DNA from: Candidatus Bathyarchaeia archaeon
GTDB lineage: Archaea; Thermoproteota; Bathyarchaeia; Bathyarchaeales; Bathycorpusculaceae
Assembly (NCBI GenBank): GCA_038883795.1
Contig: JAVZLK010000015.1
Span: forward strand, 1 to 34,939
Direction of reading: 5' to 3'
DNA length: 34,939 bases
The translations under genes were made by a program, and so were the position numbers. Positions 3 through 31,449 of this stretch are shown here, piece by piece. Numbering within the stretch: position 1 is the first letter of the stretch; every line of letters starts with the position of its first letter. Under the pieces are notes generated by a model that saw only the letters and a program-made list of their open reading frames with translations, was not told the origin of the DNA and made no database searches.

Positions 3-965
3 TTAGAGAATACAAGTAAACCGATAATAAACGAAGCTATGCGAAAAGAGGGAGCTTTAGACGCTATAGAAATGGCTTCCGCAGCCGTGGGCGGAGTGGA
101 AGAGTTAAGGAGAAAGCCAATAATGCTTCTGCTTATGTCTATAACAAGTCCGCTTACATATGATAGGGCAACCCTTGAAGCCTTTATTGAAGCTTGCAAA
201 CTTGGTATTCCAGTTTTCGTGAATTCGGGTCCCATGGCTGGAGCTACAAGCCCCGTAACTTTAGCTGGAACTTTAACCCTAAACATGGCGGAATTCATAA
301 GCGCTCTCGTGATTCGTTATGTGGTTAACAAAGATGCTCCGCTCATAATTGGAAGTTGGGCTAGGGCAATGGATGTAAGAGAAGCCTCAGCAGTGCTGGG
401 AGGACCAGAATTTGCAATACTTCATGCATGCGTTGCCAATTTGGCTCACTATTACGGGATTCCAAGCGCTGGTGGTGGCGTTTTATCCGACTCCAAAACT
501 TTGGACGCCCAAATGGGATACGAAAAAGCTTTGACTGGTGTGCTTCCAGCCCTTGCTGGCCTTAACCTGATATGTGGCATGGGTTTAATTGCATCAGAAA
601 ATACCATGAGCCTTGAAGGACTCGTCATAGATAACGAAGTTGTCAGTATGATAAAGAAAATTGTGAATGGTTTTGAGATTAAGGATGAAACTTTAGCATT
701 TGATGTTATTAAGAAAGTTGGACCGAAAGGAAGCTTCATAAGAGAACGTCACACCCTTGAACATTTTAGAAAGGAGATTTGGATACCAAAAATAACTAAT
801 AGAACATTCCCTGAAGTTTGGGTTAAATCAGGCGCCAAAGATTTATGGGTCAAAGCTAAGGAAGAGGTTGAAAAAATATTGAAGGAACATGAGGTTCTCC
901 CACTTTCAAAGGATGTAAAAGATAAAATTATGAACATTATTAAAGGGAAAAGAGAAGGTGCCTAA
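3..965 (+). CDS. mttB: MttB-superfamily (trimethylamine methyltransferase family) substrate:corrinoid methyltransferase, non-pyrrolysine; 5'-truncated by window edge
   Basis: Frame open from position 3 (LENTSKPIINEAMR...). Motifs GATSPVTLAGTL, YYGIPSAGGGVLSDSK..DAQMGYEK, GLNLICGMG, LVIDNE, VGPKGSF..E.HT. Leu (483-485) at the Pyl-equivalent site. Confidence 0.92.
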   Translation, partial: LENTSKPIINEAMRKEGALDAIEMASAAVGGVEELRRKPIMLLLMSITSPLTYDRATLEAFIEACKLGIPVFVNSGPMAGATSPVTLAGTLTLNMAEFISALVIRYVVNKDAPLIIGSWARAMDVREASAVLGGPEFAILHACVANLAHYYGIPSAGGGVLSDSKTLDAQMGYEKALTGVLPALAGLNLICGMGLIASENTMSLEGLVIDNEVVSMIKKIVNGFEIKDETLAFDVIKKVGPKGSFIRERHTLEHFRKEIWIPKITNRTFPEVWVKSGAKDLWVKAKEEVEKILKEHEVLPLSKDVKDKIMNIIKGKREGA

Positions 966-1623
966 AATGAGTGTAGAAAAAGTTATAGAAAAATTGAGGC
1001 TTGCAGTTTTAGACTACAACACTGACGACGCAGTTTCAGCTGCTAAAGAAGTCATAAAACTTGGAGTTGACCCGCTTAGGGCTATAGAAGAAGGTTTGGC
1101 TCAGGGAATAAGAGAGGTTGGAGAAAAATTTGCAAATGGGGAAATATTCCTTCCAGAGTTAATTATGGCTGCGGAAACCATGAAAAAAGCCCTAGAAGTT
1201 TTGGAGCCCGAACTAAAGAAGAAAAAGAAAGAGCGCAAGGCTCTTGGAAAAGTACTTTTAGGCACAGTTGCAGGAGACATTCACAGCATAGGAAAAACCA
1301 TCGTTGCCTCCATGCTAACCGCAAACGGATTCGAAGTTTATGACATTGGAGAGGATATACCAGCAGAAAAATTCGTGGAGAAAATTAAAGAGTTAAATCC
1401 AGACATAGTTGGATTATCAGCCCTTCTAACCACAACCTTGCCGGAACAAAGAACAGTTATTGAAACTTTAAAGAGGGAAGGCTTGCGAGACAAAGTTAAA
1501 GTGATTATAGGAGGAGCCCCAGCCAGTAAGGAATGGGCTGAAGAGATAGGTGCTGATGGATACGGAGCTGACGCAGCTGAAGCCGTTGAAGTCGTTAAGA
1601 AACTATTAGAACATTCCAAGTGA
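958..1623 (+). CDS. Methyltransferase cognate corrinoid (B12-binding) protein, MttC/MtbC-like
   Basis: Cap domain (GEIFLPEL..AA..MK) plus GTVAGDIHSIGK (DxHxxG), GLSALLTTT, IIGGAP, GADGY. GTG overlaps the upstream stop; alternative ATG at 967. Confidence 0.95.
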   Translation: MPKMSVEKVIEKLRLAVLDYNTDDAVSAAKEVIKLGVDPLRAIEEGLAQGIREVGEKFANGEIFLPELIMAAETMKKALEVLEPELKKKKKERKALGKVLLGTVAGDIHSIGKTIVASMLTANGFEVYDIGEDIPAEKFVEKIKELNPDIVGLSALLTTTLPEQRTVIETLKREGLRDKVKVIIGGAPASKEWAEEIGADGYGADAAEAVEVVKKLLEHSK

Positions 1624-1656
1624 ACGTTTCTCAAAATATTAAGTGTGGAATAATAG

Positions 1657-2850
1657 ATGAGTAAAAAATTGAAACTCTCGAAACGTTCAAAGAGCATTCC
1701 AAAATCTGGAATTAGAAAAATGTTTGACCTCGCTCAAAAATATACGGATGTTGTGAATTTATCAATAGGAGAACCAGATTTTGACACTCCACCCCACATA
1801 ATTGAAGCCGCCATAAAAGCCATGAAAGAAGGATACACTCACTACACGGTAAATGCCGGCTTTCTAGTGTTTAGAAAGGCGGTTTCAGAAAAATTGCGAA
1901 GAGAAAACCGCATAGACGCCGACCCGGAAAAGGAGATTATGGCAACAGCTGGAGCAATGGGAGGCTTATCTTTAGCATTCCTAACCCTAATAGACCAGGG
2001 CGATGAAGTGCTTATTCCAAATCCCGGCTTTCCGAATTATGCTGCTCAAGTTGTTCTCGCTGGTGGCAAACCAATCTCATATCCCCTCAAAGAAGAAAAT
2101 AATTTTCGCATAGACGCGGATGACATAGCTAAACTAATAACGCCAAAAACGAAAGCGATTCTCATTAATTCGCCATCCAACCCCACGGGTTCCGTGCTGA
2201 GGGAAAAAGAGCTAAAAAATATAGCGAATATAGCGTTAGAACATGACCTTTTAGTTATTTCTGATGAAGCTTACGAAGCCATTTTATATGACGGAACAAA
2301 CCACATAAGTATAGCCTCCTTCCCGGAAATGAAGGAAAGAACCATAAGCATATTCACTTTTTCAAAAACATATGCCATGACGGGGTGGCGCATAGGCTTC
2401 ACAGTAGCACAAAAAGAGATAATAGAGGAAATGCTTGAACTTCAAGAACACATACTTGTGCATCCAAGCTCCATTTCTCAAATGGCTGCCCTCGCAGCGT
2501 TGCAAGGTCCAAGAGAGTACGTGCTAAAGATGCTCAGGGAGTATGCGAAAAGAAGGGAAATCATAATAAAAGAGTTAAACAACATGCCGGGAATTACGTG
2601 CCTAAAACCGGAAGGGGCCTTCTACGCTTTTCCAAACATAAAGAAAACCGGCATGTCCTCAACCGAAATTGCAATGTACCTCCTCAAGAAGGCGAAAGTT
2701 ATAACTGTGCCAGGAACAGCCTTTGGAGATTATGGCGAAGGATACGTAAGAATTTCCTATTCAACATCAAAAGAGAAGATAAGAGAGGCCATGAACAGAA
2801 TGAAGGCCGCCCTTGAAAAGTTAAACAAAAATAATAAGAACCATATTTAA
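1657..2850 (+). CDS. PLP-dependent aminotransferase class I/II (AspC-like)
   Basis: LSIGEPDF, NSPSNPTG, ISDEAY, FSKTYAMTGWRIG (PLP Lys), GAFYAFP, GYVRISY. Confidence 0.95.
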   Translation: MSKKLKLSKRSKSIPKSGIRKMFDLAQKYTDVVNLSIGEPDFDTPPHIIEAAIKAMKEGYTHYTVNAGFLVFRKAVSEKLRRENRIDADPEKEIMATAGAMGGLSLAFLTLIDQGDEVLIPNPGFPNYAAQVVLAGGKPISYPLKEENNFRIDADDIAKLITPKTKAILINSPSNPTGSVLREKELKNIANIALEHDLLVISDEAYEAILYDGTNHISIASFPEMKERTISIFTFSKTYAMTGWRIGFTVAQKEIIEEMLELQEHILVHPSSISQMAALAALQGPREYVLKMLREYAKRREIIIKELNNMPGITCLKPEGAFYAFPNIKKTGMSSTEIAMYLLKKAKVITVPGTAFGDYGEGYVRISYSTSKEKIREAMNRMKAALEKLNKNNKNHI

Positions 2851-2987
2851 AATCATCTTTTTCTAAAGTGATGTTTAATTTTATCTTTTTATCAAGCAGA
2901 GCAATTACGGACTGAGATTCCAGAGGCATATAACGTGACAATTTCTGGCGATGCTCTTAAATATCACGAATAAACTTGAACAATATA

Positions 2988-3015
2988 AATAAAAAAGAAA
3001 AATAAAAAGGGAAAA
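2988..3015 (-). terminator. T-rich archaeal terminator candidate after the opine dehydrogenase gene
   Basis: Minus strand reads TTTTCCCTTTTTATTTTTCTTTTTTATT immediately after the stop codon. Confidence 0.45.
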
Positions 3016-4164
3016 TTAAATTTGCCCTTCATTCACATATTTTAGAATTTGTTCCTTGCTCATTCCTGCCAAGCCAAGTTTCTGAAGAGTCCTTCCTTTT
3101 TCTCGGAAGTTTTCCTCAGCGATTATTGACCCTATTTCTATTACTGCGTCGATAGTTGGAGTTTCAACTCCCACTAGATCGCCTAATTCACTTATCGGAA
3201 CTAGCCCGTAAGGAAGATCCTCGGTTATATAGCGTCCCTTTAGGAAGTTAAACCCGCGACCAGGAGCATATTCAAGAGGCTGATTTTCCGGTTTAGCCCA
3301 CTCTGGTTCATCAATTCTTTCTCTTGGACGTTTTACCCAATATGGGTACATTAGAACGTCATGAACGTATTCCCAAGACCATGGTTCCATACCAAAGGAT
3401 TTTGTGATCTTCATGGCCTCATTATTCATAGCCCTTCTTAAGAGAGCCACGGCATGTGATTTTTCAGCCTTCAAATATGGTTCTTCGCCTAGTTCAACGT
3501 CAACAGCCTTGAGAATCATCATGGGTGGGTGACCAAATATATTTATGTTTTCCAAGCTCATTTTTAATTCATTAACAGAATCTATCAGTATTCCACGTTC
3601 ACCATCGTCTTCCGGATAAAATTCGTTTAACACGGATAACATTTTAGCAGTATTTTTCGCGGGAAAGGCTGAAAATGGAACCTTTGCTTTAACAGCTGTA
3701 CAGTAGACCTTATTACCCATAAACTTTCTCGTAGCATATGGTAGTATGCCTGTGGCACCTAACAGAATCCTTTTGAGGTCTACGCCCTTCTCTTTAAGGG
3801 TATGAGCGAATTCTACACATCCAAGAGTATAGGAAGGATTCAAAGTTATTAATTGACCATCTTCAATATATGGTGCGATGGCCTCTGCAAAAGCTTTGTG
3901 ACCGTAGGCGGGTACAGCGATTATAATCACGTCCACGCCTTTAATAGCTTCGCCTACATTCGTGGTGATCATGTTTAACTTTGCAAACCCAGTTCTAGCG
4001 ACACCAGCCATTTCGATGCCTCCGCTTTGCATCACCGGATCAAGACTTTCCTTAAACCGAGGCAGTTCACAAAGATTTACAGTATGCCCAGCTAAAGTCA
4101 AGTCACCAGCAAACGTTAGACCTCCATTACCGCTTCCTAAAACGGCAACTTTGTATTTTTTCAT
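3016..4164 (-). CDS. NAD/NADP-dependent octopine/nopaline (opine) dehydrogenase family protein
   Basis: Rossmann VAVLGSGNGG, IIIAVPAYGH, LENINIFGHPP, C-terminal RYITEDLPYGLVP...GVETPTIDAVI...GRTL..LGL. GGTGA RBS upstream. Confidence 0.88.
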   Translation of the reverse strand: MKKYKVAVLGSGNGGLTFAGDLTLAGHTVNLCELPRFKESLDPVMQSGGIEMAGVARTGFAKLNMITTNVGEAIKGVDVIIIAVPAYGHKAFAEAIAPYIEDGQLITLNPSYTLGCVEFAHTLKEKGVDLKRILLGATGILPYATRKFMGNKVYCTAVKAKVPFSAFPAKNTAKMLSVLNEFYPEDDGERGILIDSVNELKMSLENINIFGHPPMMILKAVDVELGEEPYLKAEKSHAVALLRRAMNNEAMKITKSFGMEPWSWEYVHDVLMYPYWVKRPRERIDEPEWAKPENQPLEYAPGRGFNFLKGRYITEDLPYGLVPISELGDLVGVETPTIDAVIEIGSIIAEENFREKGRTLQKLGLAGMSKEQILKYVNEGQI

Positions 4165-4192
4165 ATACTCACCTTTTCGCTATTTTTGATAT

Positions 4193-4213
4193 GAAAAACT
4201 TTAAAAACTTTTC
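4193..4213. promoter_or_regulatory. Putative bidirectional BRE/TATA element between divergent opine dehydrogenase and enolase genes
   Basis: GAAAAACTTTAAAAACTTTTC reads as purine-rich BRE + TTTAAA on both strands (reverse complement GAAAAGTTTTTAAAGTTTTTC). Confidence 0.5.
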
Positions 4214-4261
4214 CAGCATTTTTAGTTAAATCAACATATTGCGTAAAAAGATGGTGTCTAA

Positions 4262-5419
4262 ATGAAAATAACAGATTTAAAAGCATATTGTGTTGAAATG
4301 CCTTTTAAAGAACCTGGCCTTCGAGTTGCACACGAAGAAAATCCTGAAAAAATTATAAAAAGCGAGAAATTCACTTTAGTGAAAATATTCACCGACGAAG
4401 GAATAACAGGTTTCGGTGTACAAGATGTGCCTTACCAGTGGTTCTGTGAATACCTTGAAAAACAAGTAAAACCATACTTAATAAACCAGGTCGTAGAACC
4501 TTTTTATATTGAAAAATTTGTGAGATATTTCCGACCACAACCTTTCGGGACAAAAGTTAGTCCTCGCCCCTGTTGTGTAGAAATAGCTTTATGGGATTGC
4601 ATTGGGAAAAAAGCTGGTTTACCAATTTATAAAATTCTTGGAGCTTATCAAGATAAGGTAAAAGCTTACGCATCTGTTCTCGAAGAATATCCACTCTGGA
4701 ATGCTGAGAAATGGGTGAAGTTTGTTGAAAGCATATTTAAAGAAGGCTTTAAAGCGGTGAAACTTCATATTGGATGGATGTGGCCTGATCCGCGTAAGGT
4801 TATAAATGTTGTAAAGAAAATAAGGGAAACGGTTGGCTATGACGTTGACTTAATGGTGGATGCTATGCAAGCATGGGTCCCACAACCTCTTTACGATTTT
4901 AGAACCGCCTTAAAATATGCCAGAGAACTCGAAAAATATGAAGTTTTATGGCTTGAGGAACCTTTGCCGCACTTTAATAATCCTGAATTAAGCGCGAAAT
5001 TATGTGAAGCAGTGGACATTCCAATAGCTGGAGGTGGTGCAATGTTTGGCTTTCATACGTACAAGACTGTTTTAGAGAAAGGTGCGTTAGATATAGTTCA
5101 ACCAGATGTTATGCATGCTGGTGGAATTTTGGAAGTGAGAAGAATAGCCTTTTTAGCGGAGGCTTATGGAAAACAGTGCATTCCACATTTTTGGGGAACG
5201 GGGATAGGATTGGCTGCAACATTGCAAGTAATAGGCTCTACAAATATACCGTGGGTGGAGTACTGCTATCACCCACCTGCATTCAGCGTGGAAGTCAGAG
5301 ATGCTATGCTGAGTGAACCTATAAAAATAGATAAAGACGGTTTCGTCGAGATACCTAAAAAGCCAGGGCTTGGAGTAGAGTTGAATGAAGATTTTCTAAA
5401 AAAGCATATTGTAAAATGA
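4262..5419 (+). CDS. Enolase superfamily, mandelate racemase/muconate lactonizing enzyme family (MR-like subgroup), atypical active site
   Basis: TDEGITGFG, EIALWD..GK..GLPIYKILG, GFKAVKLH, LMVDA, WLEEP, DIVQPD, PH, VEY, P.KPGLGVE. Confidence 0.9.
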   Translation: MKITDLKAYCVEMPFKEPGLRVAHEENPEKIIKSEKFTLVKIFTDEGITGFGVQDVPYQWFCEYLEKQVKPYLINQVVEPFYIEKFVRYFRPQPFGTKVSPRPCCVEIALWDCIGKKAGLPIYKILGAYQDKVKAYASVLEEYPLWNAEKWVKFVESIFKEGFKAVKLHIGWMWPDPRKVINVVKKIRETVGYDVDLMVDAMQAWVPQPLYDFRTALKYARELEKYEVLWLEEPLPHFNNPELSAKLCEAVDIPIAGGGAMFGFHTYKTVLEKGALDIVQPDVMHAGGILEVRRIAFLAEAYGKQCIPHFWGTGIGLAATLQVIGSTNIPWVEYCYHPPAFSVEVRDAMLSEPIKIDKDGFVEIPKKPGLGVELNEDFLKKHIVK

Positions 5420-5428
5420 AATGATAAA

Positions 5429-6421
5429 CTAAAATTTGTGACAAGCTACAAAATGATTTTTGTTAACTTCAATTAGCTCTGGCTCTTCTTTTTCACAGGT
5501 AGATTTGCATAGTGAACATCTAGGATGAAAACGGCATCCCTCAGGTGGGTTGATGGCGCTGGGGACCTCCCCAAATAATGTAAACTCTTTGCCCCTAATT
5601 TTTGGATCAGGAATTGGAATCGCCTCTATTAATTTTTCAGTATAAGGATGCAGAGGTGATTGAAAAATCTCATTGACTTCAGCGAATTCAACAATTTTAC
5701 CTAAATACATTACTGCAACCTTATCGCAAATGTGCCAGACGGTGTTTAAATCATGGGAAATATACAAATATGTTAAGCCTAATTTTGCCTTTAATTCTGT
5801 TAATAGATTCAGAATTTGGGCTCGTACAGAAACATCTAATGAAGATACAGGTTCATCGCAAATAAGGAATTCTGGTTCAACAGCAAGAGCTCTAGCTATT
5901 CCAATTCTTTGCCTTTGTCCACCGCTAAATTCATGTGGATATCTATATGCGTGATATTCTTCTAAGCCCACCAACTTTAAAAGTTTTAAAAGTCTGTCCT
6001 TCCACTCATCTTTAGAAACATGTTGATGTATTTTAAAGGGTTCTGTTATTATGTCAGCAACAGTCCATCTTGGATTAAGCGACATATATGGATCTTGAAA
6101 TACAAGTTGCATTTTTCTTCTCAGTTCGAATTTTTTAGCTTGCTCTTTTGAACTGAAAATTTTGGTTATATTGACGCCTTTGAAAAATACCTCCCCAGAA
6201 GTGGGCATGATTAAATGTAAAATGGTCTTGCCAAGAGTTGTTTTCCCGCATCCGCTTTCTCCCACTAACCCTAACGTTTCGCCTTTATGAATTGTTAGAT
6301 TTACGCCGTCAACAGCCTTTACTACGCCTATTTGTTTTCTTCGAATTATGCCTCTTTCTGTAACAGGGTAGTACTTCATAAGATTCTTTGTTACTAATAA
6401 GGGATCCTCGCTCATCTTCAA
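5429..6421 (-). CDS. oppF: Oligopeptide/dipeptide ABC transporter ATP-binding subunit (OppF/DppF-like)
   Basis: Walker A GESGCGKTT, FSGGQRQR signature, ICDEP, C-terminal GCRFHPRC...H.VAC. Confidence 0.93.
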   Translation of the reverse strand: MKMSEDPLLVTKNLMKYYPVTERGIIRRKQIGVVKAVDGVNLTIHKGETLGLVGESGCGKTTLGKTILHLIMPTSGEVFFKGVNITKIFSSKEQAKKFELRRKMQLVFQDPYMSLNPRWTVADIITEPFKIHQHVSKDEWKDRLLKLLKLVGLEEYHAYRYPHEFSGGQRQRIGIARALAVEPEFLICDEPVSSLDVSVRAQILNLLTELKAKLGLTYLYISHDLNTVWHICDKVAVMYLGKIVEFAEVNEIFQSPLHPYTEKLIEAIPIPDPKIRGKEFTLFGEVPSAINPPEGCRFHPRCSLCKSTCEKEEPELIEVNKNHFVACHKF

Positions 6422-6432
6422 CTCTCCTTATT

Positions 6433-7425
6433 TCATTTTTCAGCATTGAAACATGAAACTATGTGTCCTCGTTCCAATTCTATTAGGTCGGGGACTTTAC
6501 TTTTACAAATTTCTTTCGCATAAGCGCATCTTGGATGAAATCTGCATCCCGGTGGTGGGGATATTGGATCAGGAATGCTTCCGTCTATGACTTTAAGTTT
6601 TTGTCTTCGCTCTGTTTTGTAATCAAAACGTGGTACTGAGGATATTAATGCTTCTGTATATGGATGTCCAGGGTTTGAGAATATAGTTTCGGTCTCTGCA
6701 ATTTCGCAAACTTTACCAGAGTATAAAACTACTACTCTATTTGTTAATTGGGCTACGATACCCATATCATGCGTAACGAATAATATTGTCATGCCGAAAT
6801 CTTTTTTCAAATCGTTAAGTAAATTTAAGAGTTGCGCTTGAACAGTCACATCTACGTTGGTTGTGGGTTCATCAGCTAGTAGAAGAGAAGGATTACATAA
6901 AAGGGCTCTTGCGATAACCACTCGCTGTTTCATGCCACCGCTGAGCTCATGAGGGTATTGATTAAACCTTTTTTCAGGGTCGGACAATCTTACAGCTTTA
7001 AGTAGTTTTAGAACTCTTTCTACCGCCTCTTCTTTGTTTAGGCCGGTATGCCAGCGCAAAATTTCTACTAATTGTTCTCCAATTGTGTAAATGGGATTAA
7101 GTGAAAATGCTGGATTTTGGAAAATCATAGATATTTCTTTTCCCCGAATTTTTTGCATCTCAGCTTCTGATTTCTCCAGAAGGTTGCTTCCTTTGAATAG
7201 AATTTTCCCACCAGCTATTTTCCCTGGTCTTGGAACAGTTCTTAGTATGGAAAGGCATGTTACTGATTTTCCTGATCCTGATTCGCCTACAAGTCCAACG
7301 ACTTCTCCTTGTTTAACGTCAAAGGTTATATCATCAACAGCCTTAACAATTCCGGCCGATGTATAGAAGTATGTTACAAGATTTTCTACTTTTAACAGCG
7401 TCTCAGAGCTATTTATTTTCGGCAT
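6433..7425 (-). CDS. oppD: Oligopeptide/dipeptide ABC transporter ATP-binding subunit (OppD/DppD-like)
   Basis: GESGSGKS, YPHELSGGMKQR, LADEPTT, GCRFHPRC. Confidence 0.93.
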   Translation of the reverse strand: MPKINSSETLLKVENLVTYFYTSAGIVKAVDDITFDVKQGEVVGLVGESGSGKSVTCLSILRTVPRPGKIAGGKILFKGSNLLEKSEAEMQKIRGKEISMIFQNPAFSLNPIYTIGEQLVEILRWHTGLNKEEAVERVLKLLKAVRLSDPEKRFNQYPHELSGGMKQRVVIARALLCNPSLLLADEPTTNVDVTVQAQLLNLLNDLKKDFGMTILFVTHDMGIVAQLTNRVVVLYSGKVCEIAETETIFSNPGHPYTEALISSVPRFDYKTERRQKLKVIDGSIPDPISPPPGCRFHPRCAYAKEICKSKVPDLIELERGHIVSCFNAEK

Positions 7426-7432
7426 TTCTTTC

Positions 7433-8362: not shown

Positions 8363-8378
8363 GCATCATCCCCTTAAC

Positions 8379-9350: not shown

Positions 9351-9427
9351 TTTTATTCAGCTTCCAAAAGTTTTTTATGCTCAAAGATATAAAAATGTTT
9401 TCAACGAAAGAAAAAAGAGGTAAACAT

Positions 9428-11305: not shown

Positions 11306-11325
11306 ACTCTTTTTTTTTATTTTAT
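11306..11325 (+). terminator. Poly-T terminator candidate after the binding-protein gene
   Basis: CTCTTTTTTTTTATTTTAT directly after TAA, between convergent genes. Confidence 0.5.
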
Positions 11326-19556: not shown

Positions 19557-19592
19557 TTTATTCTATCCTAAAATAGTTATGCCCCAGAACTT

Positions 19593-21035: not shown

Positions 21036-21085
21036 GAATTTTCCCTTTTTGAAACTCTTAACAAACAAAGCTTTTAATAAGCTTT

Positions 21086-22546: not shown

Positions 22547-22582
22547 TTTAAACTCCTAACCCCTAATGATAGCCTTTTCAAA

Positions 22583-23233: not shown

Positions 23234-23354
23234 TAATCCACCAGCATTTCCAAACTGTATGGATTGCATATAAATTTTTTGAGATTGAATACATATTGTC
23301 TTTCATAAAGAAATAAATATAATGAGGTGTAGTAATTTTCGGAAGTGCATGCTG

Positions 23355-24314
23355 ATGGTTGACAAGGTTAGGCTGTTTCATGCTGTAGATGTGCATGGAA
23401 GCGAAATGGTTTGGAGAAAGTGGCTCTCCATCCCTAAAGTGCACAAAGCAGACATCTTATTATTATGTGGCGATTTAACGGGAAAACTAATAATCCCAAT
23501 AATTGAGGAAAAACCTGGGCGATATAAAACTATGGTTTATGGAAGATGGATTAACGCCAGCGGCGAAGATGAGCTTAAAAAGTTAGTGGATAAAATCACT
23601 TTCAGCGGATTTTACACTCATGTTTGTAATCAAGAAGAGTACGATGAACTTATGAAGAACTCTAAAAGAGTGGATGAATTATTCCGCAATTACATGAGGG
23701 AAAGGCTCCAAAGATGGCTCAGCATGATTGACGAAAAACTTTCCAAGGATGTTACTGTTGTAATGATGCCTGGAAATGACGACTCCTTTGAAATTGATGA
23801 GCTCATAAAGGCTCATGAAGACCGCGTTATATACCCACTAGAAAAAGTTGTAGACCTTTGCTTCGATTATAAGATGCTAAGTTTTGAATGGGTTAACCCT
23901 ACACCTTGGGATACGCCACGAGAAGCCCCAGAAGAAGAGTTGTGGAAAAAATTGGAAAAGATAAAGGATATGTTCTCCGGCGACTGGAGAAAGGTTATCC
24001 TAAATTTCCACTGCCCACCATATTGCACCAAACTGGATTTGGCTCCGAAATTGGATAAAAATTTAAAGCCTATTGTTTTCTTAGGGCGAATAATTTATGA
24101 TAATGTGGGCAGCAAAGCCATAAGGCGATTTATTGAGGAAAATCAGCCGCTTTTGAGTTTACACGGTCATATTCACGAATCCTACGCTTCCGATTATGTA
24201 GGAAAAACCTTAGCCATAAACCCCGGATCAGAATACAGCGAAGGAGTGCTCAGAGGTTTCATCATTGACCTTACCAAAGATGGTGTTGAGAAGTGGTGGA
24301 AAGTGGAGGGATAA
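23355..24314 (+). CDS. Calcineurin-like metallophosphoesterase (Icc-related)
   Basis: DVHGS, GDLTGK, PGNDD, HCPP, HGHIHE, INPGS. Start is uncertain (23322/23349/23355). Confidence 0.88.
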   Translation: MVDKVRLFHAVDVHGSEMVWRKWLSIPKVHKADILLLCGDLTGKLIIPIIEEKPGRYKTMVYGRWINASGEDELKKLVDKITFSGFYTHVCNQEEYDELMKNSKRVDELFRNYMRERLQRWLSMIDEKLSKDVTVVMMPGNDDSFEIDELIKAHEDRVIYPLEKVVDLCFDYKMLSFEWVNPTPWDTPREAPEEELWKKLEKIKDMFSGDWRKVILNFHCPPYCTKLDLAPKLDKNLKPIVFLGRIIYDNVGSKAIRRFIEENQPLLSLHGHIHESYASDYVGKTLAINPGSEYSEGVLRGFIIDLTKDGVEKWWKVEG

Positions 24315-24317
24315 AGA

Positions 24318-25109
24318 ATGGAGGAAAAGGAGAAAAAGCAGGTATCATCTGAAGAAATTGTAAAAATTGCTTTAGACCTTATAGAAGAATCTAAGAGGGA
24401 AGGGCTAACGTTAAGGCTTATAGGGGGTCCCGCAGTCAGAATCCATTCTTCTCCCATGGCAATTGACCTTCACAAGAAGTTAAAGAGGATTGAAGGGCAA
24501 GAGTTTCCAGACATAGATTTTGTGGCTCCAGATAAGGAAAGGGCGAAAATTAGAAAGTTCTTTGAGACGAGGGGTTGGAAGTTCGATTCCTACATCTTTT
24601 TCTTCACAAGCGGGGTGGGAACAAGAAATCGCCAAGTTTACAGAGGAAAAGTGGATTTGGACATTTTCTATGACGAGTTGGATTTATGCCACAAAATAGA
24701 TTTTAGAAACAGATTCCACTTGGACTATCCTACGGCATCATTGGTTGACTTACTGCTAACCAAGTTGGAAATTGTTGAATTCACAGAGAAAGACGCCAAA
24801 GACGTCATAGTCCTAATAAGAGACCACAAAATCGGAGACACTGATGCACCAGAAACGATTAACGCCAAATATATGGCTAAACTGTTTGCCAATGACTGGG
24901 GATTCTGGTATACAGCTACGACCAACCTGAAAAAGGTTAGGGCTGCCTGCCCCATGTTTAAGCAACTTTCTGAAGAGGATATTGCCGATGTTACTTCAAA
25001 AATTGATCAAATTTTAAGGTATATTGATGAGGAGCCTAAAACTAAGGATTGGTTGAAGAGAGCAGAGGTTGGAACAAAGAAGAAGTGGTATAAGGAAGTT
25101 AGACTGTAA
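24318..25109 (+). CDS. Uncharacterised nucleotidyltransferase-fold (Pol-beta superfamily-like) protein
   Basis: LRLIGG.AV..H, DIDF, third acidic strand DLDIF, helix LLLTKL.....EKDAKD. Starts 3 bp after the phosphoesterase stop. Confidence 0.65.
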   Translation: MEEKEKKQVSSEEIVKIALDLIEESKREGLTLRLIGGPAVRIHSSPMAIDLHKKLKRIEGQEFPDIDFVAPDKERAKIRKFFETRGWKFDSYIFFFTSGVGTRNRQVYRGKVDLDIFYDELDLCHKIDFRNRFHLDYPTASLVDLLLTKLEIVEFTEKDAKDVIVLIRDHKIGDTDAPETINAKYMAKLFANDWGFWYTATTNLKKVRAACPMFKQLSEEDIADVTSKIDQILRYIDEEPKTKDWLKRAEVGTKKKWYKEVRL

Positions 25110-25196
25110 ATTTTAAACTTAAGTCTTATAATCCCATGTCCATATACTATTTGCATTATAAGAGTCTGCAACGGCAAAGTTTAGAGTTGGTAACCC

Positions 25197-25874
25197 GTGA
25201 AATGGACGAAAGAAGACATAAAAAAGGCTGAGAAAATATCCAACGAGTTGGTTTCTGTAATCAGCTACTTTGATGGTTTAAGAAGTGCGTCAATACATGA
25301 TCCTAAAGAGTTGTTGATGAAAACTAAAACCTCTGGTTTAGACTCGGCATATCTGAAATATTTTAGTAAAGAAACTCAGAAGGTTTTAAAGAAAATAGGG
25401 CGGTCTGGCAAGGTTAGAAAAATGATAAGGGTGAATAAGGTTCTAAATTTTGTTACGCTGGTTTATTTCATGATTGTTGTTGCCTTAGCCATTTTATGGC
25501 AAAGAGACGTAAGGCCTCCCTCATTAGAGTGGGTGTATTGGACGTTTTTGTCATGGCCAAGCATAATTTTGCTTTTCATCCTAGCAGACGTAACTTTGCT
25601 CATGCTAAGCTTAACCAAGTATGAGCTCAAAAAAATTGCTGATGAAGCCGGCGTCAAAGATGAGGAGGCTACAAAAAGAAGGTTGAAGGAAGCTGTGCAA
25701 CATCACATTAACAAGTTGAAGGCAAATGTTGAAAAGTATGGTTTAAAACCCGAAGATTACAAGATTAAGTTGCAAAGGACAGATTATGAGGGAATAAAGA
25801 TAATTAAGAAACCGGGCATTTTGCGTGGATATTACCTCGCGATAATAAATGCAAGAATTAGAAAAAAATGGTAA
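25197..25874 (+). CDS. Hypothetical 2-TM membrane protein with basic soluble termini
   Basis: 225 aa ORF, GTG start, two hydrophobic helices (VLNFVTLVYFMIVVALAILW; WPSIILLFILADVTLLMLSL). Confidence 0.7.
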   Translation: MKWTKEDIKKAEKISNELVSVISYFDGLRSASIHDPKELLMKTKTSGLDSAYLKYFSKETQKVLKKIGRSGKVRKMIRVNKVLNFVTLVYFMIVVALAILWQRDVRPPSLEWVYWTFLSWPSIILLFILADVTLLMLSLTKYELKKIADEAGVKDEEATKRRLKEAVQHHINKLKANVEKYGLKPEDYKIKLQRTDYEGIKIIKKPGILRGYYLAIINARIRKKW

Positions 25875-25945
25875 TTAACGTCTGTGCCATGGCATAAGAC
25901 TATTAAATTCGTGTATCTATAATCTCTCACAGGGAGGAAGGAGAA

Positions 25946-27400
25946 ATGACGAAAGAAATGTTAGCTATTTTAATCGCTGCTTTTCTATTGCTAAGTTTCG
26001 TTAATATTTCATTGGAAACACCCGCAAATAACAACACGTTCGAATCGAGAAAGCGTTGTACAACCATTATTATTGGAAAGGGAGCGAGTGCAGACGGTTC
26101 AGTATTACTTGGTCACAACGAGGAACTAGGAGATAGGACATGCATGCATATACAAGTTGCTCCAAGCACGTCATACTCGCCAGACGATGTAATTGAGACG
26201 TTCTTTGGCGCCAAAATAAGAGTTGGCGACATACCCCATTGGACGCCTACATCTTGTACCTACATTAGACTCGCCGCTTTTGATGAGAAGTATGTCCCGG
26301 GCGACTTAGCGGCAGGTATAAATGAGCATCAGGTGTCAATAGCGAACAATCTTGCCTACTCCAAGGAAACATGGTTAAGAGACACTAAAGGGTGGCATGT
26401 TGCAAAAACAGGCGACATTCTTTGGAGCGAATTTATGGAAATAGCTTTAAAGTGGGCAAAAACCTCTAGAGAGGCAGTTGAGATTATTGCTTGGCTTGCT
26501 GAAACATATGGCCTTGGATGCGATCCGGGAACAATGTTTGGAATAACCGACCCAAATGAAGGTTGGTGGATAGAGATAGGGTATAAGCATTGGGTCGCAA
26601 AAAAGGTTCCAGACAACGCCATGGAAATGCGTGCAAACTATTTCAGAATAGGGACAGAGTGGGATATGGGCTCCAGCGATTTGGTTGAGTTTGCAATAGA
26701 ACAAGGATGGTACGACCCAAGCAGCGGACCATTTAATTGGACAGAAGTGTACGGTGATCCAAGCGGGTGGGGTTCCTGGCAATATCTTCGTCACTGGCGT
26801 GTTGAATCCCTTTTAGAGGAATATGCTGAGGGCGGTGTCTCCATCAGCGAATTAATGAACATTTTGAGGGATCATTATGAAGGAACATCATATGATACAA
26901 CTAACATGTACGAGTACGGTTCGCCTCACAATACGCCTTATAGAACTATTTGCCGCGATTATACTGTTGAGAGTTTTGTTGCCCAGTCGAGAAACTGGAT
27001 GCCTTCAGCAATTGGTGGTGTGATGTGGATTGCTCTAACTTCACCATGTTCAAGTGTCTATGTACCATGGTATATGGGAATATTAAGCGTTCCCAAAGCA
27101 TATCAGGCTGGCACTAACGGGTATGATAAAAACTCTGCTTGGTGGGTATTCGAAAAATTATCTGATACTGTAGACAAGAATTATGACTCCAGAATCTGGT
27201 CTGTTCGAAATGCGTGGCGATTATTTGAAGAGGAAGAATTCGCTGATGTGCCTTATCTTGAAGCTGAAGCAATGGAGCTTTGGGAAAAAGGACTTTACGA
27301 TGACGCACGCTTATGTTTGACATCTTACACGTGGTATAAAGCATTATCTGCAATGCGGCTAGCTATAGAACTTACTGCAGAAATCAAACATCTAAAATAG
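25946..27400 (+). CDS. Secreted C69-family (dipeptidase A/secernin-like) Ntn-hydrolase peptidase
   Basis: Signal peptide, then CTTIIIGKGASADGSVLLGHNE (Cys nucleophile), GINEHQVSI, AKTSREAV, D..EGW..E, ILRDHYEGT, RTI, S.YVP.Y. GGAGG RBS. Confidence 0.88.
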   Translation: MTKEMLAILIAAFLLLSFVNISLETPANNNTFESRKRCTTIIIGKGASADGSVLLGHNEELGDRTCMHIQVAPSTSYSPDDVIETFFGAKIRVGDIPHWTPTSCTYIRLAAFDEKYVPGDLAAGINEHQVSIANNLAYSKETWLRDTKGWHVAKTGDILWSEFMEIALKWAKTSREAVEIIAWLAETYGLGCDPGTMFGITDPNEGWWIEIGYKHWVAKKVPDNAMEMRANYFRIGTEWDMGSSDLVEFAIEQGWYDPSSGPFNWTEVYGDPSGWGSWQYLRHWRVESLLEEYAEGGVSISELMNILRDHYEGTSYDTTNMYEYGSPHNTPYRTICRDYTVESFVAQSRNWMPSAIGGVMWIALTSPCSSVYVPWYMGILSVPKAYQAGTNGYDKNSAWWVFEKLSDTVDKNYDSRIWSVRNAWRLFEEEEFADVPYLEAEAMELWEKGLYDDARLCLTSYTWYKALSAMRLAIELTAEIKHLK

Positions 27401-27547
27401 AAACTTTTAACCACCTTTATTTTTAGTTTTCATTAAAAATTTAAATTGAGACAAATAAGGAGTAAAGATGATTAATAAACAAAGTATTTTCGGATATCAC
27501 CGAACGATAATGAATACAAGAGTAAAGAAAATGGGGGTAATTAATGT

Positions 27548-29140
27548 TTATGCTGGTGGTATTTCGCCGTAAATGTCCTGTAATGCAATGCCAATTCTTC
27601 TGTTGCGCTCTGCAAAGGCAAACCATATTAGGGAGCCTATGAAAACCCATAAGGCCAAATACGCCATGCCCCAAGCACTCAACCAAGATGCGGCTACTGC
27701 TAATCCCCAAACCCAGAAGAAAATTGCCAAAGCGCCACATATGCTTATCACTGGTATGCCAGCAAAAACCGCTTTGAACCCTCTTTCCCAAATGTCTGGA
27801 CGTCTATAGGGCAGTATTACGCCTGCAAAGGCTATGAGGAGTTGGCTAAGGATGAAAATGAAAGTAGCGTCCACAGTTGCCATGAAAACATTACCAAGAC
27901 TTAACGGTATAAAGATGTAGGCAATCACCGCTGTCAAAATAACTGACCAGTGAGGCGAGTGGAAGCGTTCATTCACGCGGTTGAAGGCTTCTGGGAAGAA
28001 CCTGTCGAAAGCCCAAGCGAAAGGTTGTCTTGGACCCACAAGTAAGGTTGCTCCGGAACAGTTAGAGATCCATAGGGCTGGGATAAAGGCAAATATTGCT
28101 TGAAGCCACACTTGTCCATGTGCTAAGGGTACTGTAAATAGAGGTAGGCTTGGATCCATCATTGTCATTGTAGTTACTTGGTCAGTGTATCCTTTTCCAT
28201 AGACGTAACAGTATTGGCTTACGAAGTCTCCGTAAGCTGTGTATACGCCGATCACTGTGGCGACATACCAGAACATTACGAATAGTGTTGCAGCAAAAAC
28301 GCCAACTATAAAGCCTGTTTTTGGAGATTTCATTTCTCCACCAAAGTAGCATGCTGCCGTGGTTCCCCAGTATGCCCAGAAAGTGTCTACGAAATTAAGG
28401 ATTGTTGCACCTCCAGCACCGCCTGCCTCTTCTGTAGCACTTGCCACATAATCAGCCCAACCATTATCGATGGCTACTTGTTTCACTTGTTCCCATGAAC
28501 CTGCTCCATAAGTTAGATTCCAAGCTTCTTTCACATAGGTTGGATTCATAATTCCGTAGAAAGTGGCACCCACCCCAAGAAAGCTTCCCACTATGCCTAT
28601 GGCAACCAATCCCGCAACATACCATCTAAACACCCGTATACCCAGCAATGACAACACCGTATAAAGTGTAACTATCACCACAGCGATTAGGCCTAACCCT
28701 GTATTATCAAGTGCAAACTCGATCCAAGCTGGATTATCAGTGGCGTGACCCATCAGGTTGATCACTTTGACCCAGAACCCGGCGCCAATTACAGCCAAAA
28801 CTCCAGTAGCAAAGTTGTTAGCTACGAAATACAACCAGTCTCCGAGAAAGCCTACGTGAGGATCCAATACCCGTGATACGTAAATGTAGCTTCCTCCAGA
28901 CCTTGGCATCATTATTCCCATTTCAGTAATTACGTAAGCCAAGAAAATCGCTGGCAAAGCACCAATAATATAGGCAATGGGAATTATTGATCCGGGATGC
29001 CAATACGAAGCCTGCACAGACCAATAGTTTATTCCGCTGCCAATGGTGTAGCTGAGCGAAACGGAGAACGCTGACCACCAGCCTAACTCTCTGACCAGTC
29101 CAGTTGCCTTTCTTGGAAAAGCAAACTTAACTTCGGCCAA
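27548..29140 (-). CDS. APC-superfamily amino acid/amine permease
   Basis: F.RKATGLVRE, MPRSGGSYIYVSR, GGEMK.P, R..FAWAFDR.FP, about 12 TM segments, terminal EIPP. TTG start. Confidence 0.9.
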   Translation of the reverse strand: MAEVKFAFPRKATGLVRELGWWSAFSVSLSYTIGSGINYWSVQASYWHPGSIIPIAYIIGALPAIFLAYVITEMGIMMPRSGGSYIYVSRVLDPHVGFLGDWLYFVANNFATGVLAVIGAGFWVKVINLMGHATDNPAWIEFALDNTGLGLIAVVIVTLYTVLSLLGIRVFRWYVAGLVAIGIVGSFLGVGATFYGIMNPTYVKEAWNLTYGAGSWEQVKQVAIDNGWADYVASATEEAGGAGGATILNFVDTFWAYWGTTAACYFGGEMKSPKTGFIVGVFAATLFVMFWYVATVIGVYTAYGDFVSQYCYVYGKGYTDQVTTMTMMDPSLPLFTVPLAHGQVWLQAIFAFIPALWISNCSGATLLVGPRQPFAWAFDRFFPEAFNRVNERFHSPHWSVILTAVIAYIFIPLSLGNVFMATVDATFIFILSQLLIAFAGVILPYRRPDIWERGFKAVFAGIPVISICGALAIFFWVWGLAVAASWLSAWGMAYLALWVFIGSLIWFAFAERNRRIGIALQDIYGEIPPA

Positions 29141-29306: not shown

Positions 29307-30134
29307 ATGATAATAATTACTGTGGCTCCAACAGGTTCGGGTCCAATGTGGAAGGAAACACCTTACCTTCCAATAACCCCAGAGCAAATAGCTGAAGAAG
29401 CAGTAAAAGCCTGTGAGGCTGGAGCCGCCGTCGCTCATATACATGTCAGAAATCCCGAAACTAAGGAGCCACATCCAGACGTTAAACTGTATGGCGAAGT
29501 TATGGAAAGAATTAGAGAAAAATGCGACATGATTATTCAACTCACCACGGGCGGCGGTGGTCCATATGGCATATCATTGGAGCAAAGAATTTGCGCCCTC
29601 GAACTGAATCCGGAATTTGCATCATTAAACGTGGCTACCATGACCTTTGGCAACAGCATATTCCTAAACCCTCCAGAGGCTGTAGAAAAAATTGCCAAGG
29701 CAATGCTTGAAAGAAACATAAAACCAGAAGTTGAATGCTATGATGTTGGACATATAAACTTGGCACTTCAATTATTTGAGAAGGGATTGTTGAAAGAACC
29801 ATTAAGGTTTGGACTAGTGTTAGGAGTAAGAGGCGGAATCCCAGCAACACCAGAAAACCTTATGCACATGGTGAAAGCTTTACCAAAAAACTGTAGGTGG
29901 AATGTCATAGCTGTCGGAGGCAGAGTTCAATTTCAGTTGCTTACTCTCGGAATGATTTTGGGCGGAGACGTTCGAGTGGGAATGGAAGACAACATCTATC
30001 TCGCCAAAGGTGTCTTAGCCAAAAGTAACGCTGAATTAGTCACCAAAGTTGTTAGAATAGCTAAGGAACTTGGCATAGAAATAGCCACTCCAAGCGAAGC
30101 CAGAAAACTTCTCGGATTAACCGGAAAATCTTGA
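29307..30134 (+). CDS. Beta-keto acid cleavage enzyme (BKACE/DUF849, Kce family)
   Basis: IITVAPTG, P.TPEQIA..A..C.EAGAA.AHIHVR (Zn His pair), TTGG, PE.ASL, KPE.ECYD.G, RVGMEDN, ATP.EAR..LGL. Confidence 0.92.
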   Translation: MIIITVAPTGSGPMWKETPYLPITPEQIAEEAVKACEAGAAVAHIHVRNPETKEPHPDVKLYGEVMERIREKCDMIIQLTTGGGGPYGISLEQRICALELNPEFASLNVATMTFGNSIFLNPPEAVEKIAKAMLERNIKPEVECYDVGHINLALQLFEKGLLKEPLRFGLVLGVRGGIPATPENLMHMVKALPKNCRWNVIAVGGRVQFQLLTLGMILGGDVRVGMEDNIYLAKGVLAKSNAELVTKVVRIAKELGIEIATPSEARKLLGLTGKS

Positions 30135-30135
30135 A

Positions 30136-31449
30136 GTGATAAGCATGGAAGAAATGGAAAAATCAAAGAAACTTTTCGCAGAAGCAAAAAAACTCACACC
30201 CGGAGGCGTCCACAGCACCTTACGCTTTTTTGACCCCTACCCCATCTTCATATCAAAAGCAAAGGGCTCAAAAATTTATGATGTGGACGGCAACCAATAC
30301 ATTGATTATCACCTAGCTTTTGGACCCGTGATTTTGGGACATGCCCACCCAAGCGTTTCAGACGCCGTTAAAAAACAACTGGATAATGGCGTAATCTATG
30401 GCCTCTGCCATGAGTTGGAGGTTAAAGTTGCCAAAAAAATTGTGGCCCATGTTCCTTCAGCCCAAATGGTTAGATTTTGCAACACAGGCACAGAAGCCAC
30501 ATACCATGCCATCCGTTTAGCAAGAGCTTACACTAAAAGGAATAAAATTGTAAAGTTTGAAGGCGCCTACCACGGATGGCACGACATTGTATCCTTCAGC
30601 TCAAGCCCAACATTAAAGGAAGCTGGACCAAAAGAGTGCCCAACGCCAGTTCCAGATACTGCAGGCGTTTCAGCGGATACGGCAAAACAAGTGATTATTG
30701 TTCCCTTTAATGACCAGGAGGCGGTTGAAAAAGTAATAAAAAGGCATCATAATGAAATTGCAGCGTTAATAACAGAACCAATCCTCCACGGCAGCGCCAC
30801 ATGTATTATCCCAAAAGAAGGATTCCTAAAATTTTTGAGGGAAATCACCCAAGAATATGGCATCGTACTGATTTTTGATGAAGTAGTTACTGGTTTCCGT
30901 CACCATCTGGGAGGGGCACAAAAAATCTTCGATGTAACGCCTGACTTAACAACATTTGCAAAGGCTATGGCAAACGGTTTTCCTGTAGCAGCAGTTTGTG
31001 GGAAAAAAGAAATCATGGAATATTTTAAGCCGACTGGTAATGTTGATTATGGAGGAACTTTTAACGGAAATCCCATATCCATGGCTGCCACACTTGCCAC
31101 AATAAAAGAGTTGGAGAAAAATGAAGAGTACAAACATCTTTTTAAGCTTGGAGAAGAGATTAGAAGTCAGCTTAACAAAGTCATTGCCAAATTGAAACTT
31201 GAAGCTCAAACGATTGGTTTCGGGTCGATTTTTCAAATATTATTTACAAAAAAGAAAATCATAAATTACAGAGACACATTGTCCTCGAAAAATGAGCTTT
31301 TCATGAAATTTCAAAAAGAAATGATGAAAAGAAGTGTTTTCATCCTACCAAAACCAAACAAGAGATGCCACATTTCAGCCGCCCACACAACCGAAGACAT
31401 AAATTTCACAATTGAAAAGGCTGAGGAAGCTTTAAAAACGCTAAAGTAA
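30136..31449 (+). CDS. Class III PLP aminotransferase, HemL(GSA-AM)-like; probably a catabolic beta/omega-transaminase
   Basis: PGGV.S, DVDGNQYIDY, NTGTEAT..AIRLAR, KFEGAYHG, LIFDEVVTGFR, PDLTTFAKAMANG, GTFNGNP. Coupled to BKACE with a 1-bp gap. Confidence 0.88.
   Translation: MISMEEMEKSKKLFAEAKKLTPGGVHSTLRFFDPYPIFISKAKGSKIYDVDGNQYIDYHLAFGPVILGHAHPSVSDAVKKQLDNGVIYGLCHELEVKVAKKIVAHVPSAQMVRFCNTGTEATYHAIRLARAYTKRNKIVKFEGAYHGWHDIVSFSSSPTLKEAGPKECPTPVPDTAGVSADTAKQVIIVPFNDQEAVEKVIKRHHNEIAALITEPILHGSATCIIPKEGFLKFLREITQEYGIVLIFDEVVTGFRHHLGGAQKIFDVTPDLTTFAKAMANGFPVAAVCGKKEIMEYFKPTGNVDYGGTFNGNPISMAATLATIKELEKNEEYKHLFKLGEEIRSQLNKVIAKLKLEAQTIGFGSIFQILFTKKKIINYRDTLSSKNELFMKFQKEMMKRSVFILPKPNKRCHISAAHTTEDINFTIEKAEEALKTLK

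Follow-up and report, generated by a model that had tools for sequence, protein, structure and literature searches.

For thousands of pyrrolysine (Pyl)-free proteins of the MttB methyltransferase family no substrate is known, and papers on genomes label them "quaternary amine" or "trimethylamine" by default. Among the closest described systems, MtgB, MtgC, MtgA and RamA of Desulfitobacterium hafniense form a four-component glycine betaine system (PMC13080624), and in Eubacterium limosum MtpB, MtcB, MtyB and MthB are accompanied by MtqC and MtqA. Non-Pyl MttB-corrinoid-MtrH neighbourhoods have been reported from Asgard archaea, Atabeyarchaeia/Freyarchaeia (PMC11291895), MttB-based methylotrophic acetogenesis has been predicted for Bathyarchaeia (PMC10321748, PMC11264602), and Candidatus (Ca.) Electryoneota and diverse bacteria carry an MttB-fed split methionine synthase whose methyl donor is not known (Williams et al. 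2022, PMC9324843). We analyzed a window of 34,939 nt, the whole contig C15 (JAVZLK010000015.1) of a Candidatus Bathyarchaeia archaeon genome (GCA_038883795.1, here G000; 2.18 Mb, 87% complete), which encodes three Pyl-free MttBs among genes of amino-acid transport and catabolism. The three clades lack the sole experimentally defined substrate motif, and one has a candidate replacement motif together with consistent amino-acid neighbours. With moderate confidence, we read the locus as a composite catabolic island, in which methyl transfer of a known type would let MttB1 act on an N-methyl amino or imino acid, the methyl group would reach the acetyl-CoA decarbonylase/synthase (ACDS), and the backbone would serve as electron source.

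Architecture and conservation of the methyl-transfer island

Two methyltransferase modules point inward, as an initial annotation of the window had described. Module 1, on the plus strand (3-2850), comprises mttB1 (3-965; PF06253), whose 5' end is lost at the contig edge, corrinoid protein 1 (958-1623) and a class I pyridoxal-phosphate (PLP) aminotransferase, AT1 (1657-2850; PF00155). Module 2, on the minus strand (16757-23269), comprises corrinoid protein 2 (22583-23269), mttB3 (21086-22546; PF06253), mttB2 (19593-21068; PF06253), a RACo/AcsV-type ATP-dependent corrinoid activase (17664-19556; Fer2 with RACo linker, middle and C-terminal domains) and a stand-alone MtrH/MtgA-type methyltransferase II (MTII; 16757-17662; PF02007), predicted to act from corrinoid to pterin. 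Both corrinoid proteins combine PF02310 and PF02607, exceed the TIGR02370 cut-off and contain a D-x-H-x-x-G motif. The mtrH product exceeds the cut-offs of NF002142 and TIGR01114 (score 283 vs 271) and falls under that of the MtgA model. No other MttB, MtrH or RACo genes were detected in the 87%-complete G000. Judged by these model matches, the window appears to hold every part of a corrinoid methyltransferase system (methyltransferase I (MTI), corrinoid protein, pterin-linked MTII and ATP-dependent activase), which agrees with the complete Pyl-free set and pterin-type outlet first annotated. The three unrelated MttBs would share the two corrinoid proteins, the one RACo and the one MtrH-type enzyme, and the latter, by analogy with MtgB/MtgC/MtgA and MtqB/C/A, would pass the methyl group to tetrahydromethanopterin (H4MPT).

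The window resembles the D. hafniense and E. limosum systems in its non-Pyl MttBs with their TIM-barrel fold, cognate corrinoid protein, MtrH-type MTII and RamA/RACo activator. It differs in lacking the MtgB substrate residues, in having three MttB clades in one locus, in its H4MPT/ACDS context and in its amino-acid catabolic partners. The Pyl-containing MttB of Methanosarcina barkeri, a partner of MttC, is the best Protein Data Bank (PDB) sequence match for MttB2 and MttB3 and the best fold match for MttB1; unlike that system, the window has no amber codon or Pyl, and its outlet is MtrH-type, not MtbA/coenzyme M. The Asgard and Bathyarchaeia predictions share both architecture and methyl fate, so the system cannot be called undescribed (PMC11291895, PMC10321748); in their available text, quaternary amines or trimethylamine are assumed, and active-site residues and backbone enzymes are not discussed. 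Methyl transfer here follows a known type; the undescribed part lies in the chemistry of the substrates rather than in the gene layout.

Conservation was assessed in the ten closest loci, those whose mttB1 is at least 80% identical, some of which end early; L008, L020, L021, L022, L027, L029, L034, L038, L054, L092, L130 and L139 were left out as duplicates. Corrinoid protein 1 and AT1 each occur in 10/10 of these loci, mtrH in 8/10, and orthologues of mttB2 and mttB3 in 8/10. An APC amino-acid/amine permease (27548-29140, minus strand; PF13520) is 83-96% identical in 7/10; its cassette is present in 7/7 loci long enough to cover it. The same holds in 5/5 (5/10 overall) for a pair consisting of BKACE, a Kce-like beta-keto acid cleavage enzyme (29307-30134, plus strand; PF05853), and a class III aminotransferase, AT3 (30136-31449, plus strand; PF00202). 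RACo, found in 4/10, is absent from the island position in all four sister-genus loci. The core, mttB1-corrinoid-AT1 facing mtrH-mttB2-mttB3-corrinoid, then the permease cassette and BKACE-AT3, recurs in two Bathyarchaeia genera. Checked in relatives, as the initial annotation had advised, co-occurrence thus holds for the core but not for a 10-kb insert (0/10), nor for an OCD/mu-crystallin-family imine reductase (12838-13773, minus strand; PF02423) and a C69 peptidase (1/10 each). Window genes form 13 blocks of alternating strand and are therefore not one operon. The closest MttB2 homologues (86-95% identical) come from Bathyarchaeia, and the sequencing runs containing window DNA are labelled hot-spring metagenomes. 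The family is patchy, with MttB in 9/60 relatives, mttB3 orthologues in 3/400 class genomes and mttB1-like genes in 7/300.

Judged from relatives, the island begins beyond the left edge of the window. A stretch of another contig (L008:8579-9224, G001:C18) equals window positions 1-646 at 100% identity, and the island copy of G001 itself is 89% identical; L008 probably belongs to the species of the window and was binned into G001, and it is likely the upstream continuation. Upstream of mttB1, there and in most relatives, lie a threonine-synthase-like PLP enzyme (8/10 closest loci) and an agmatinase-like gene (6/10).

Active sites and gene neighbourhoods of the MttBs

MtgB holds glycine betaine through Y97, F356, R312 and H348: Y97 and F356 form a cation-pi pair, R312 and mostly H348 bind the acid group, and R312 is reported as conserved in MtgB, MtcB, MtpB, MthB and MtyB (PMC13080624). 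We mapped these residues through PDB alignments and a 235-sequence alignment, in which loop columns may be off by one. The R312 column holds Ala in MttB1, His in MttB2 and Ile in MttB3, and none has His at 348. At Y97 and F356, MttB1 has Gly and Glu (the Y97 site taken from the G003 orthologue) and MttB3 has Gly or Asn and Cys, while MttB2 reads Ser/His/Ser/Glu across Y97/R312/H348/F356. The Pyl column holds Leu, Leu and Val, the reading frames are open without an amber codon, and no in-frame pyrrolysine read-through was found in the window; MttB3 passes TIGR02369 (533.5 bits vs 525) despite its Val. The missing betaine-binding residues argue against stachydrine or carnitine, the lead substrates proposed at first, and canonical betaine specificity is rejected on the same residues. 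O-demethylation, which the initial annotation had ascribed to some MttB members, was rejected as well: MtvB, OdmB, VdmB and MtoB belong to the UroD superfamily (PMC13222342), all three MTIs here are PF06253, and no PF01208 gene was found among the 33 window proteins covered by the Pfam scan.

A candidate substitute for R312 occurs in the MttB1 clade, which we call the Trp-x-Arg ("SWAR") clade: Trp and Arg on strand beta-6 are present in at least 90% of 32 sequences of at least 60% identity and of 26 sequences of 45-60% identity. The model of a full-length orthologue folds as MttB/MtgB (TM score 0.83-0.84), W273 directly follows strand E268-272 (predicted local distance difference test 81.5), and a sister clade carries both xWxR and R312. 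We infer that the Arg of this motif took over carboxylate binding, and MttB1 would accordingly hold its substrate by Trp-x-Arg in place of the MtgB R312. In MttB2, Asp is kept on beta-4, the F356 column has Glu and Arg is missing, as would suit an amine that bears no acid group close by. MttB2 and MttB3, with no basic residue at those sites, may well act on other methylamines, for instance side-chain-methylated lysine or arginine products, and might be loosely linked to the beta-transaminase/BKACE pair.

In a FastTree phylogeny of 89 representatives (unrooted data with a midpoint root, no characterised enzyme among them), the three MttBs fall into three separate deep clades, that of MttB3 being rare; they were therefore collected rather than recently duplicated. 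An obligate tri-/di-/mono-demethylation relay is not favoured because the distributions are separate, although MttB1- and MttB2-clade genes nonetheless share a locus in L230 and L232. A sister-genus locus (L203:12936-14390) encodes a fourth MttB, 65% identical to mttB3 and followed by a PLP enzyme and an agmatinase-like gene, and in L018 (G028:C146) an mttB3-like gene (67%) is broken by two TAG stops. In the literature found, with most subscription journals outside coverage, there was nothing on substrates of these MttB clades or on a Cys/Ala racemase, and the terms "N-methylproline" demethylation and methyllysine with MttB were absent from the papers listed.

The neighbourhoods of MttB1 point to amino acids. 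Its module in the window includes, besides AT1, an atypical proline-racemase-fold enzyme (13811-14818, minus strand; PF05544; 6/10 closest loci) and an aldehyde:ferredoxin oxidoreductase, AOR (14889-16742, plus strand; PF01314 and PF02730; 5/10). We compared 14 distant mttB1 loci (48-83% identity) with 62 other MttB loci whose mean length is similar. Amino-acid ABC permeases of the Liv type were found in 10/14 vs 2/62, the atypical racemase in 5/14 vs 0/62, AOR in 5/14 vs 5/62, AT1 in 3/14 vs 1/62 and a DAO-type dehydrogenase in 2/14 vs 2/62; paired DAO/SoxA-like dehydrogenases lie in two of the distant loci, and a 2-oxoacid oxidoreductase in one. Lineages of different families have mttB1 co-directional with Liv transporter genes and the racemase (L017, L125, L134, L230), and in G102 mtrH, corrinoid protein, racemase and OCD form one run. 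Seven further class-level loci are 41-51% identical; the two at 50% or above have Liv genes in line with mttB1 (one is apparently L136 again), and none has the racemase. The MttB1 clade is convincingly tied to amino-acid uptake and breakdown, and here the amino-acid link of the initial annotation stands, on the Liv contrast, but not for the rest of the 31 kb as one unit. Liv transporters and the atypical racemase beside MttB1 orthologues make an N-methyl amino or imino acid likely. MttB1 would most probably demethylate an N-methylated alpha-amino or imino acid, N-methylproline/hydroxyproline-like or similarly small, with the amino-acid transporter, the racemase-fold enzyme, AT1 or OCD, and AOR as putative partners in its module.

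The racemase-fold enzyme shares with ProR, 4HypE and t3HypD of the proline racemase superfamily the fold and the first catalytic Cys. Its motifs are CGDS (NSCGDS) and CVSPAGT (ICVSPAGTS) vs the classical CGH (MCGH) and DRSPCGT (DRSPCGTG): Cys91 is retained, His is replaced by Asp93, Asp by Cys249 and the second Cys by Ala253. In the classical family, the replaced His and Asp contact the ring nitrogen or carboxyl (PMC4364671). The enzyme lacks the two Cys of proline racemases and hydroxyproline epimerases, and its Cys-Ala pair is neither Cys-Thr nor Ser-Thr (NF045511 score 269 vs cut-off 540); Cys-Cys, Cys-Thr, Ser-Cys and Ser-Thr are the types named in the available accounts of the superfamily (PMC4113996, PMC4364671). 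The change characterizes a subfamily, with CGDS in 119/120 and xCxSPAG in 119/120 homologues. The atypical active sites of the initial annotation are real, in this racemase, in the MttBs without MtgB residues and in a DHDPS-like protein with SSIGE. The neighbours of the racemase-fold enzyme, OCD, aminotransferase and DAO/SoxA-like dehydrogenase, recall the proline/hydroxyproline cluster of Thermococcus litoralis, where proline racemase-like genes are clustered with proline dehydrogenases (PMC4364671). In 29 short racemase loci (L093-L121), an AT1 homologue adjoins in 13 and OCD in 3, and an obligatory MttB1-racemase pairing was rejected on the distributions. The subfamily occurs mostly without MttB1; it is therefore an amino- or imino-acid enzyme that methyltransferase loci have often recruited, not a dedicated partner. 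Near-universal in one Bathyarchaeia family (f24), it is a separate tractable target; its neighbours there are often a class I aminotransferase, OCD, creatininase or hydantoinase.

MttB2 was followed in 28 distant loci (55-80% identity) and 37 bacterial loci (40-53%). The distant loci contain an AT3 homologue in 8, an amidohydrolase in 6, an M20 hydrolase in 5, BKACE in 3, agmatinase in 3 and dimethylargininase in 1; C69, APC and dppA are found in 0/28. In the bacterial set, a homocysteine methyltransferase occurs in 19/37 and a dimethylargininase match in 3/37 (17 and 2 at open-reading-frame level). The MttB-fed methionine synthase is built from these bacterial relatives, whereas the window has an MtrH and RACo outlet and neither the homocysteine-binding module nor the adjacent homocysteine methyltransferase and activation domain of the split enzyme; no homocysteine methyltransferase was found in the window, the 10 closest or the 28 distant loci. 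A saccharopine-dehydrogenase-like neighbour is a weak clue to lysine because four bacterial loci share one gene order. In three loci (L043, L088, L089), from an archaeon and two unrelated bacteria, a dimethylargininase homologue lies next to MttB2-clade genes or close to them. In crenarchaeal metagenome-assembled genomes, corrinoid protein and mttB2 (58-59%) stand beside MCM/cdc6 without MtrH or activase nearby (L039, L040, L044).

For AT3, HemL models match best. HemA (PF05201) was absent from 4/4 island-bearing genomes (G000, G001, G003, G403) and present in the control G140, and the tetrapyrrole role (HemL, GSAM) was rejected since HemA was not found. In the Kce pathway, a HemL-like protein is a beta-transaminase (PMC3149608), and AT3 is probably such a Kat-like enzyme. 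A distant AT3 orthologue adjoins CoA-transferase/thiolase-sized genes. In Ca. Cloacamonas acidaminovorans, Kce with Kat likewise pairs a BKACE with a HemL-like transaminase, HemA being absent from the genome; the window's BKACE, by contrast, falls below the Kce cut-off (327 vs 382) and, aligned to 2y7d, has Gly where Kce has an N-terminal Glu with an amine-binding role. KamA (PF12544) was not found in 5/5 incomplete genomes (control positive in 4/14), nor was KamD (PF09043) in the same five, with a control that was silent too. Because of the Gly and the missing KamA, canonical lysine fermentation is unsupported.

Fate of the methyl group and competing explanations

CdhC was found in 4/5 genomes, including G000, where the cdh operon lies on contig C3, and Mch in 5/5; Mer above cut-off and MTHFR were each found in 0/5, all incomplete. 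mer has been reported missing from two hot-spring families (PMC8407382). If the Mer gap is real, methyl-H4MPT is barred from the usual oxidation and must condense with CO at ACDS; since ACDS needs reduced ferredoxin and AOR is the obvious source, there is a reason to couple demethylation with backbone oxidation. Methyl-H4MPT would most likely enter the C3-encoded carbon monoxide dehydrogenase/acetyl-CoA synthase, at the expense of reduced ferredoxin, which the aminotransferase and AOR (and 2-oxoacid oxidoreductases) may supply from the demethylated or a co-imported amino acid. This coupling is suggested by genomes that are incomplete.

Several observations weigh against the composite island. 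Racemase, OCD and AOR do not lie beside mttB1 in the four sister-genus loci, OCD is not enriched (3/14 distant mttB1 loci vs 11/62 controls), and the 14 distant loci are partly kin, so the contrast is overstated and should not be read as a statistical test. The racemase subfamily is found in 50/53 genomes of f24 and an MttB1 orthologue in 0/53, and the genomes listed with the racemase include none of the 7 in the class that have an MttB1-like gene. The pocket placement of W273/R275 was deduced from strand position, not from coordinates. A class III aminotransferase is missing from 20/28 distant mttB2 loci, no MttB lies in the stretches covered around two distant AT3 orthologues (64-66%), and Mtd was found in 2/5 genomes and not in G000, G003 and G403, all incomplete. 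Characterised non-Pyl MttBs take one methyl off a quaternary amine, E. limosum removes only one, and MtyB shows <1% activity when given a secondary amine (PMC8604678). For transamination the amine must be free, so the model requires either chemistry unshown for the family or an imine reductase/dehydrogenase route. The stronger form of the model, which we consider unlikely, is that R312-less Pyl-free MttBs demethylate tertiary or secondary N-methyl amino acids fully to the free amine and link methyl acetogenesis with the oxidation of that same backbone, a new Cys/Ala racemase-fold class handling the N-substituted imino acid; MttB1 would act on N-methyl-proline/hydroxyproline types, and MttB2 and MttB3, as part of the same unlikely proposal, on protein-derived N-epsilon-methyl-lysines or methylarginine products, which would abound where proteins of crenarchaea carry many methyl groups. 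Lysine methylation is reported to be extensive in crenarchaea (PMC2929605). Were N-methyl amino acid demethylation true, Bathyarchaeia would recycle methylated amino acids without methanogenesis, as an anaerobic sink, and the donor of the bacterial MttB-fed methionine synthases would be named.

A tentative alternative to the composite island, and to us a doubtful one, is that the locus harvests methyl groups only: the MttBs would take one methyl from quaternary or other amines and release the product as in E. limosum, and the amino-acid genes would mark an ordinary peptide-fermentation hot spot that shares no substrate with them. Single demethylation with excretion is known behaviour (PMC8604678), partners differ widely among lineages, a catabolic partner is missing from many mttB2 loci, G000 encodes close paralogues of AOR (64%) and AT1 (54%) at other places, and the racemase is mostly found without MttB1. 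A mere hot spot sits poorly, however, with mttB1 running co-directionally with Liv genes and racemase across families, with the mtrH-corrinoid-racemase-OCD run of G102, and with a permease and BKACE-AT3 pair kept in all close loci that reach them. Biosynthetic scavenging, in which the methyls would go chiefly into methionine (from methyl-corrinoid to a core MetE) or other anabolic products and not into energy metabolism, we regard as improbable: although mttB-activation domain-corrinoid-homocysteine methyltransferase operons of the bacterial MttB2 clade have been proposed as methionine synthases (PMC9324843), two Meth_synt_2 genes lie on C3 of G000, L039, L040 and L044 have only corrinoid protein and mttB2, and Mer was not found, the archaeal-type loci lack the homocysteine methyltransferase and the window has MtrH and RACo instead, and three methyltransferases with two carriers suggest a flux above methionine need.

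There is also a slim chance that the donors are compounds with S-methyl or guanidino groups, or else free methylamines (methionine/S-methylcysteine, methylarginine-derived mono- or dimethylamine, creatine-type). The threonine-synthase-like and agmatinase-like genes upstream of mttB1, the dimethylargininase homologues by MttB2-clade genes (in one locus of an archaeon and two to three of bacteria), a cysteine synthase in L023 and the acidic residues that MttB2 retains without Arg would fit such donors; the loci are few, though, S-methyl activity of the MttB family was not found in the literature consulted, and the Liv, racemase and AOR partners of MttB1 would stay unexplained. The initial annotation had joined positions 3-31449 into one system: peptides and betaines (stachydrine, betonicine, carnitine, methyl-lysines) would be imported and demethylated, and all nine enzymes would take part in fermenting what is left of them. 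Every gene of that scheme is present and adjacent. HpbD is a betaine enolase. Racemase, OCD, DHDPS-like and enolase families are known in hydroxyproline pathways (PMC4113996). We nevertheless hold the single system to be very improbable, given that the MttBs lack R312, H348, Y97 and F356, that strands alternate in 13 blocks, that C69 and OCD are rare in the closest loci, and that positions 2.85-12.83 kb, in 0/10 of those loci, are a clean 10-kb indel relative to G001. For this insert, the one-system reading is largely refuted.

The insert and accessory genes

The variable, strain-level insert (2851-12830, mixed strands) lies outside the conserved methyl-transfer island, as judged by synteny, GC content and depth. 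It encodes an opine/octopine-type dehydrogenase (3016-4164, minus), a KLH-type MR/enolase (4262-5419, plus), dppFDCB (5429-9350, minus), dppA (9377-11305, plus), h112 (11326-11664, minus) and a DHDPS-like protein (11875-12777, plus) with SSIGE in place of GTTGE. The opine dehydrogenase, MR gene, dppA and h112 are found in 0/10 closest loci, and one 36% DHDPS paralogue lies at a distance in G001. The G001 alignment covers window positions 1-2831 and 12861-28822, separated by 45 nt, and in 5 relatives the insert finds just short ABC-ATPase paralogue matches. Its GC content is 0.387 vs 0.414-0.415, and the MR gene has orthologues in 0/77 family and 5/300 class genomes. In run X2, summed depth is >100 over the core and 0-3 over most of the insert; within-species absence follows from this depth and from congeners, with no contig joint skipping the whole block among those listed. 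A contig of run X7 spans 2654-3426 and crosses the left edge, which makes misassembly unlikely; a 10-nt AT-rich match at the edges was unconvincing as a target-site repeat. Missing in relatives, distinct in GC and depth and bridged by X7, the opine/enolase/Dpp/DHDPS block is therefore real and a recent unrelated insertion. Opine-like conjugates of amino acids with sugar or carboxyalkyl groups are possible substrates for breakdown by its enzymes. In L220, an opine dehydrogenase and an MR gene lie close to an AT3 orthologue.

The transporter, C69 and amino/imino-acid enzyme families first listed are present with Pfam support. Of the roughly eight amino- or imino-acid enzymes counted, all genes exist, but MR and the DHDPS-like protein best match sugar-acid dehydratases and aldolases. 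The C69 peptidase (25946-27400, plus strand; PF03577) is confirmed as such, and its putative secretion was judged by eye from a hydrophobic N-terminus. The initial annotation saw no housekeeping gene in between; four genes have no catabolic assignment: h112, the membrane protein h225 (25197-25874; neither with a Pfam family), a metallophosphoesterase (23322-24314) and a nucleotidyltransferase-like protein (24318-25109). The last three, on the plus strand and each in 7/10 closest loci, form the permease-linked cassette; in the ESM Atlas, h225 and the nucleotidyltransferase-like protein match unnamed clusters only. Permease, phosphoesterase and nucleotidyltransferase make up a separate recurring unit that looks like a transporter-linked writer/eraser pair. 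The APC permease and metallophosphoesterase, in some cases with the nucleotidyltransferase-like gene, have four copies in G000 (window, C34, C54, C2; L237-L239); copies elsewhere lack MttB and lie beside a fumarate-reductase-like flavoprotein and acetamidase/formamidase, and the cassette also occurs in L214. No tRNA was found in a scan of the window, and sigma-70 promoter and terminator models, which are not suited to archaea, gave no surplus over shuffles. At the right end (32294-34938) lie a gene of 415 aa, arsC, a ferredoxin and an arsP-like permease, with a second copy, 77-86% identical, on contig C72 of G000, which would reflect either a duplication or a second strain within the bin.

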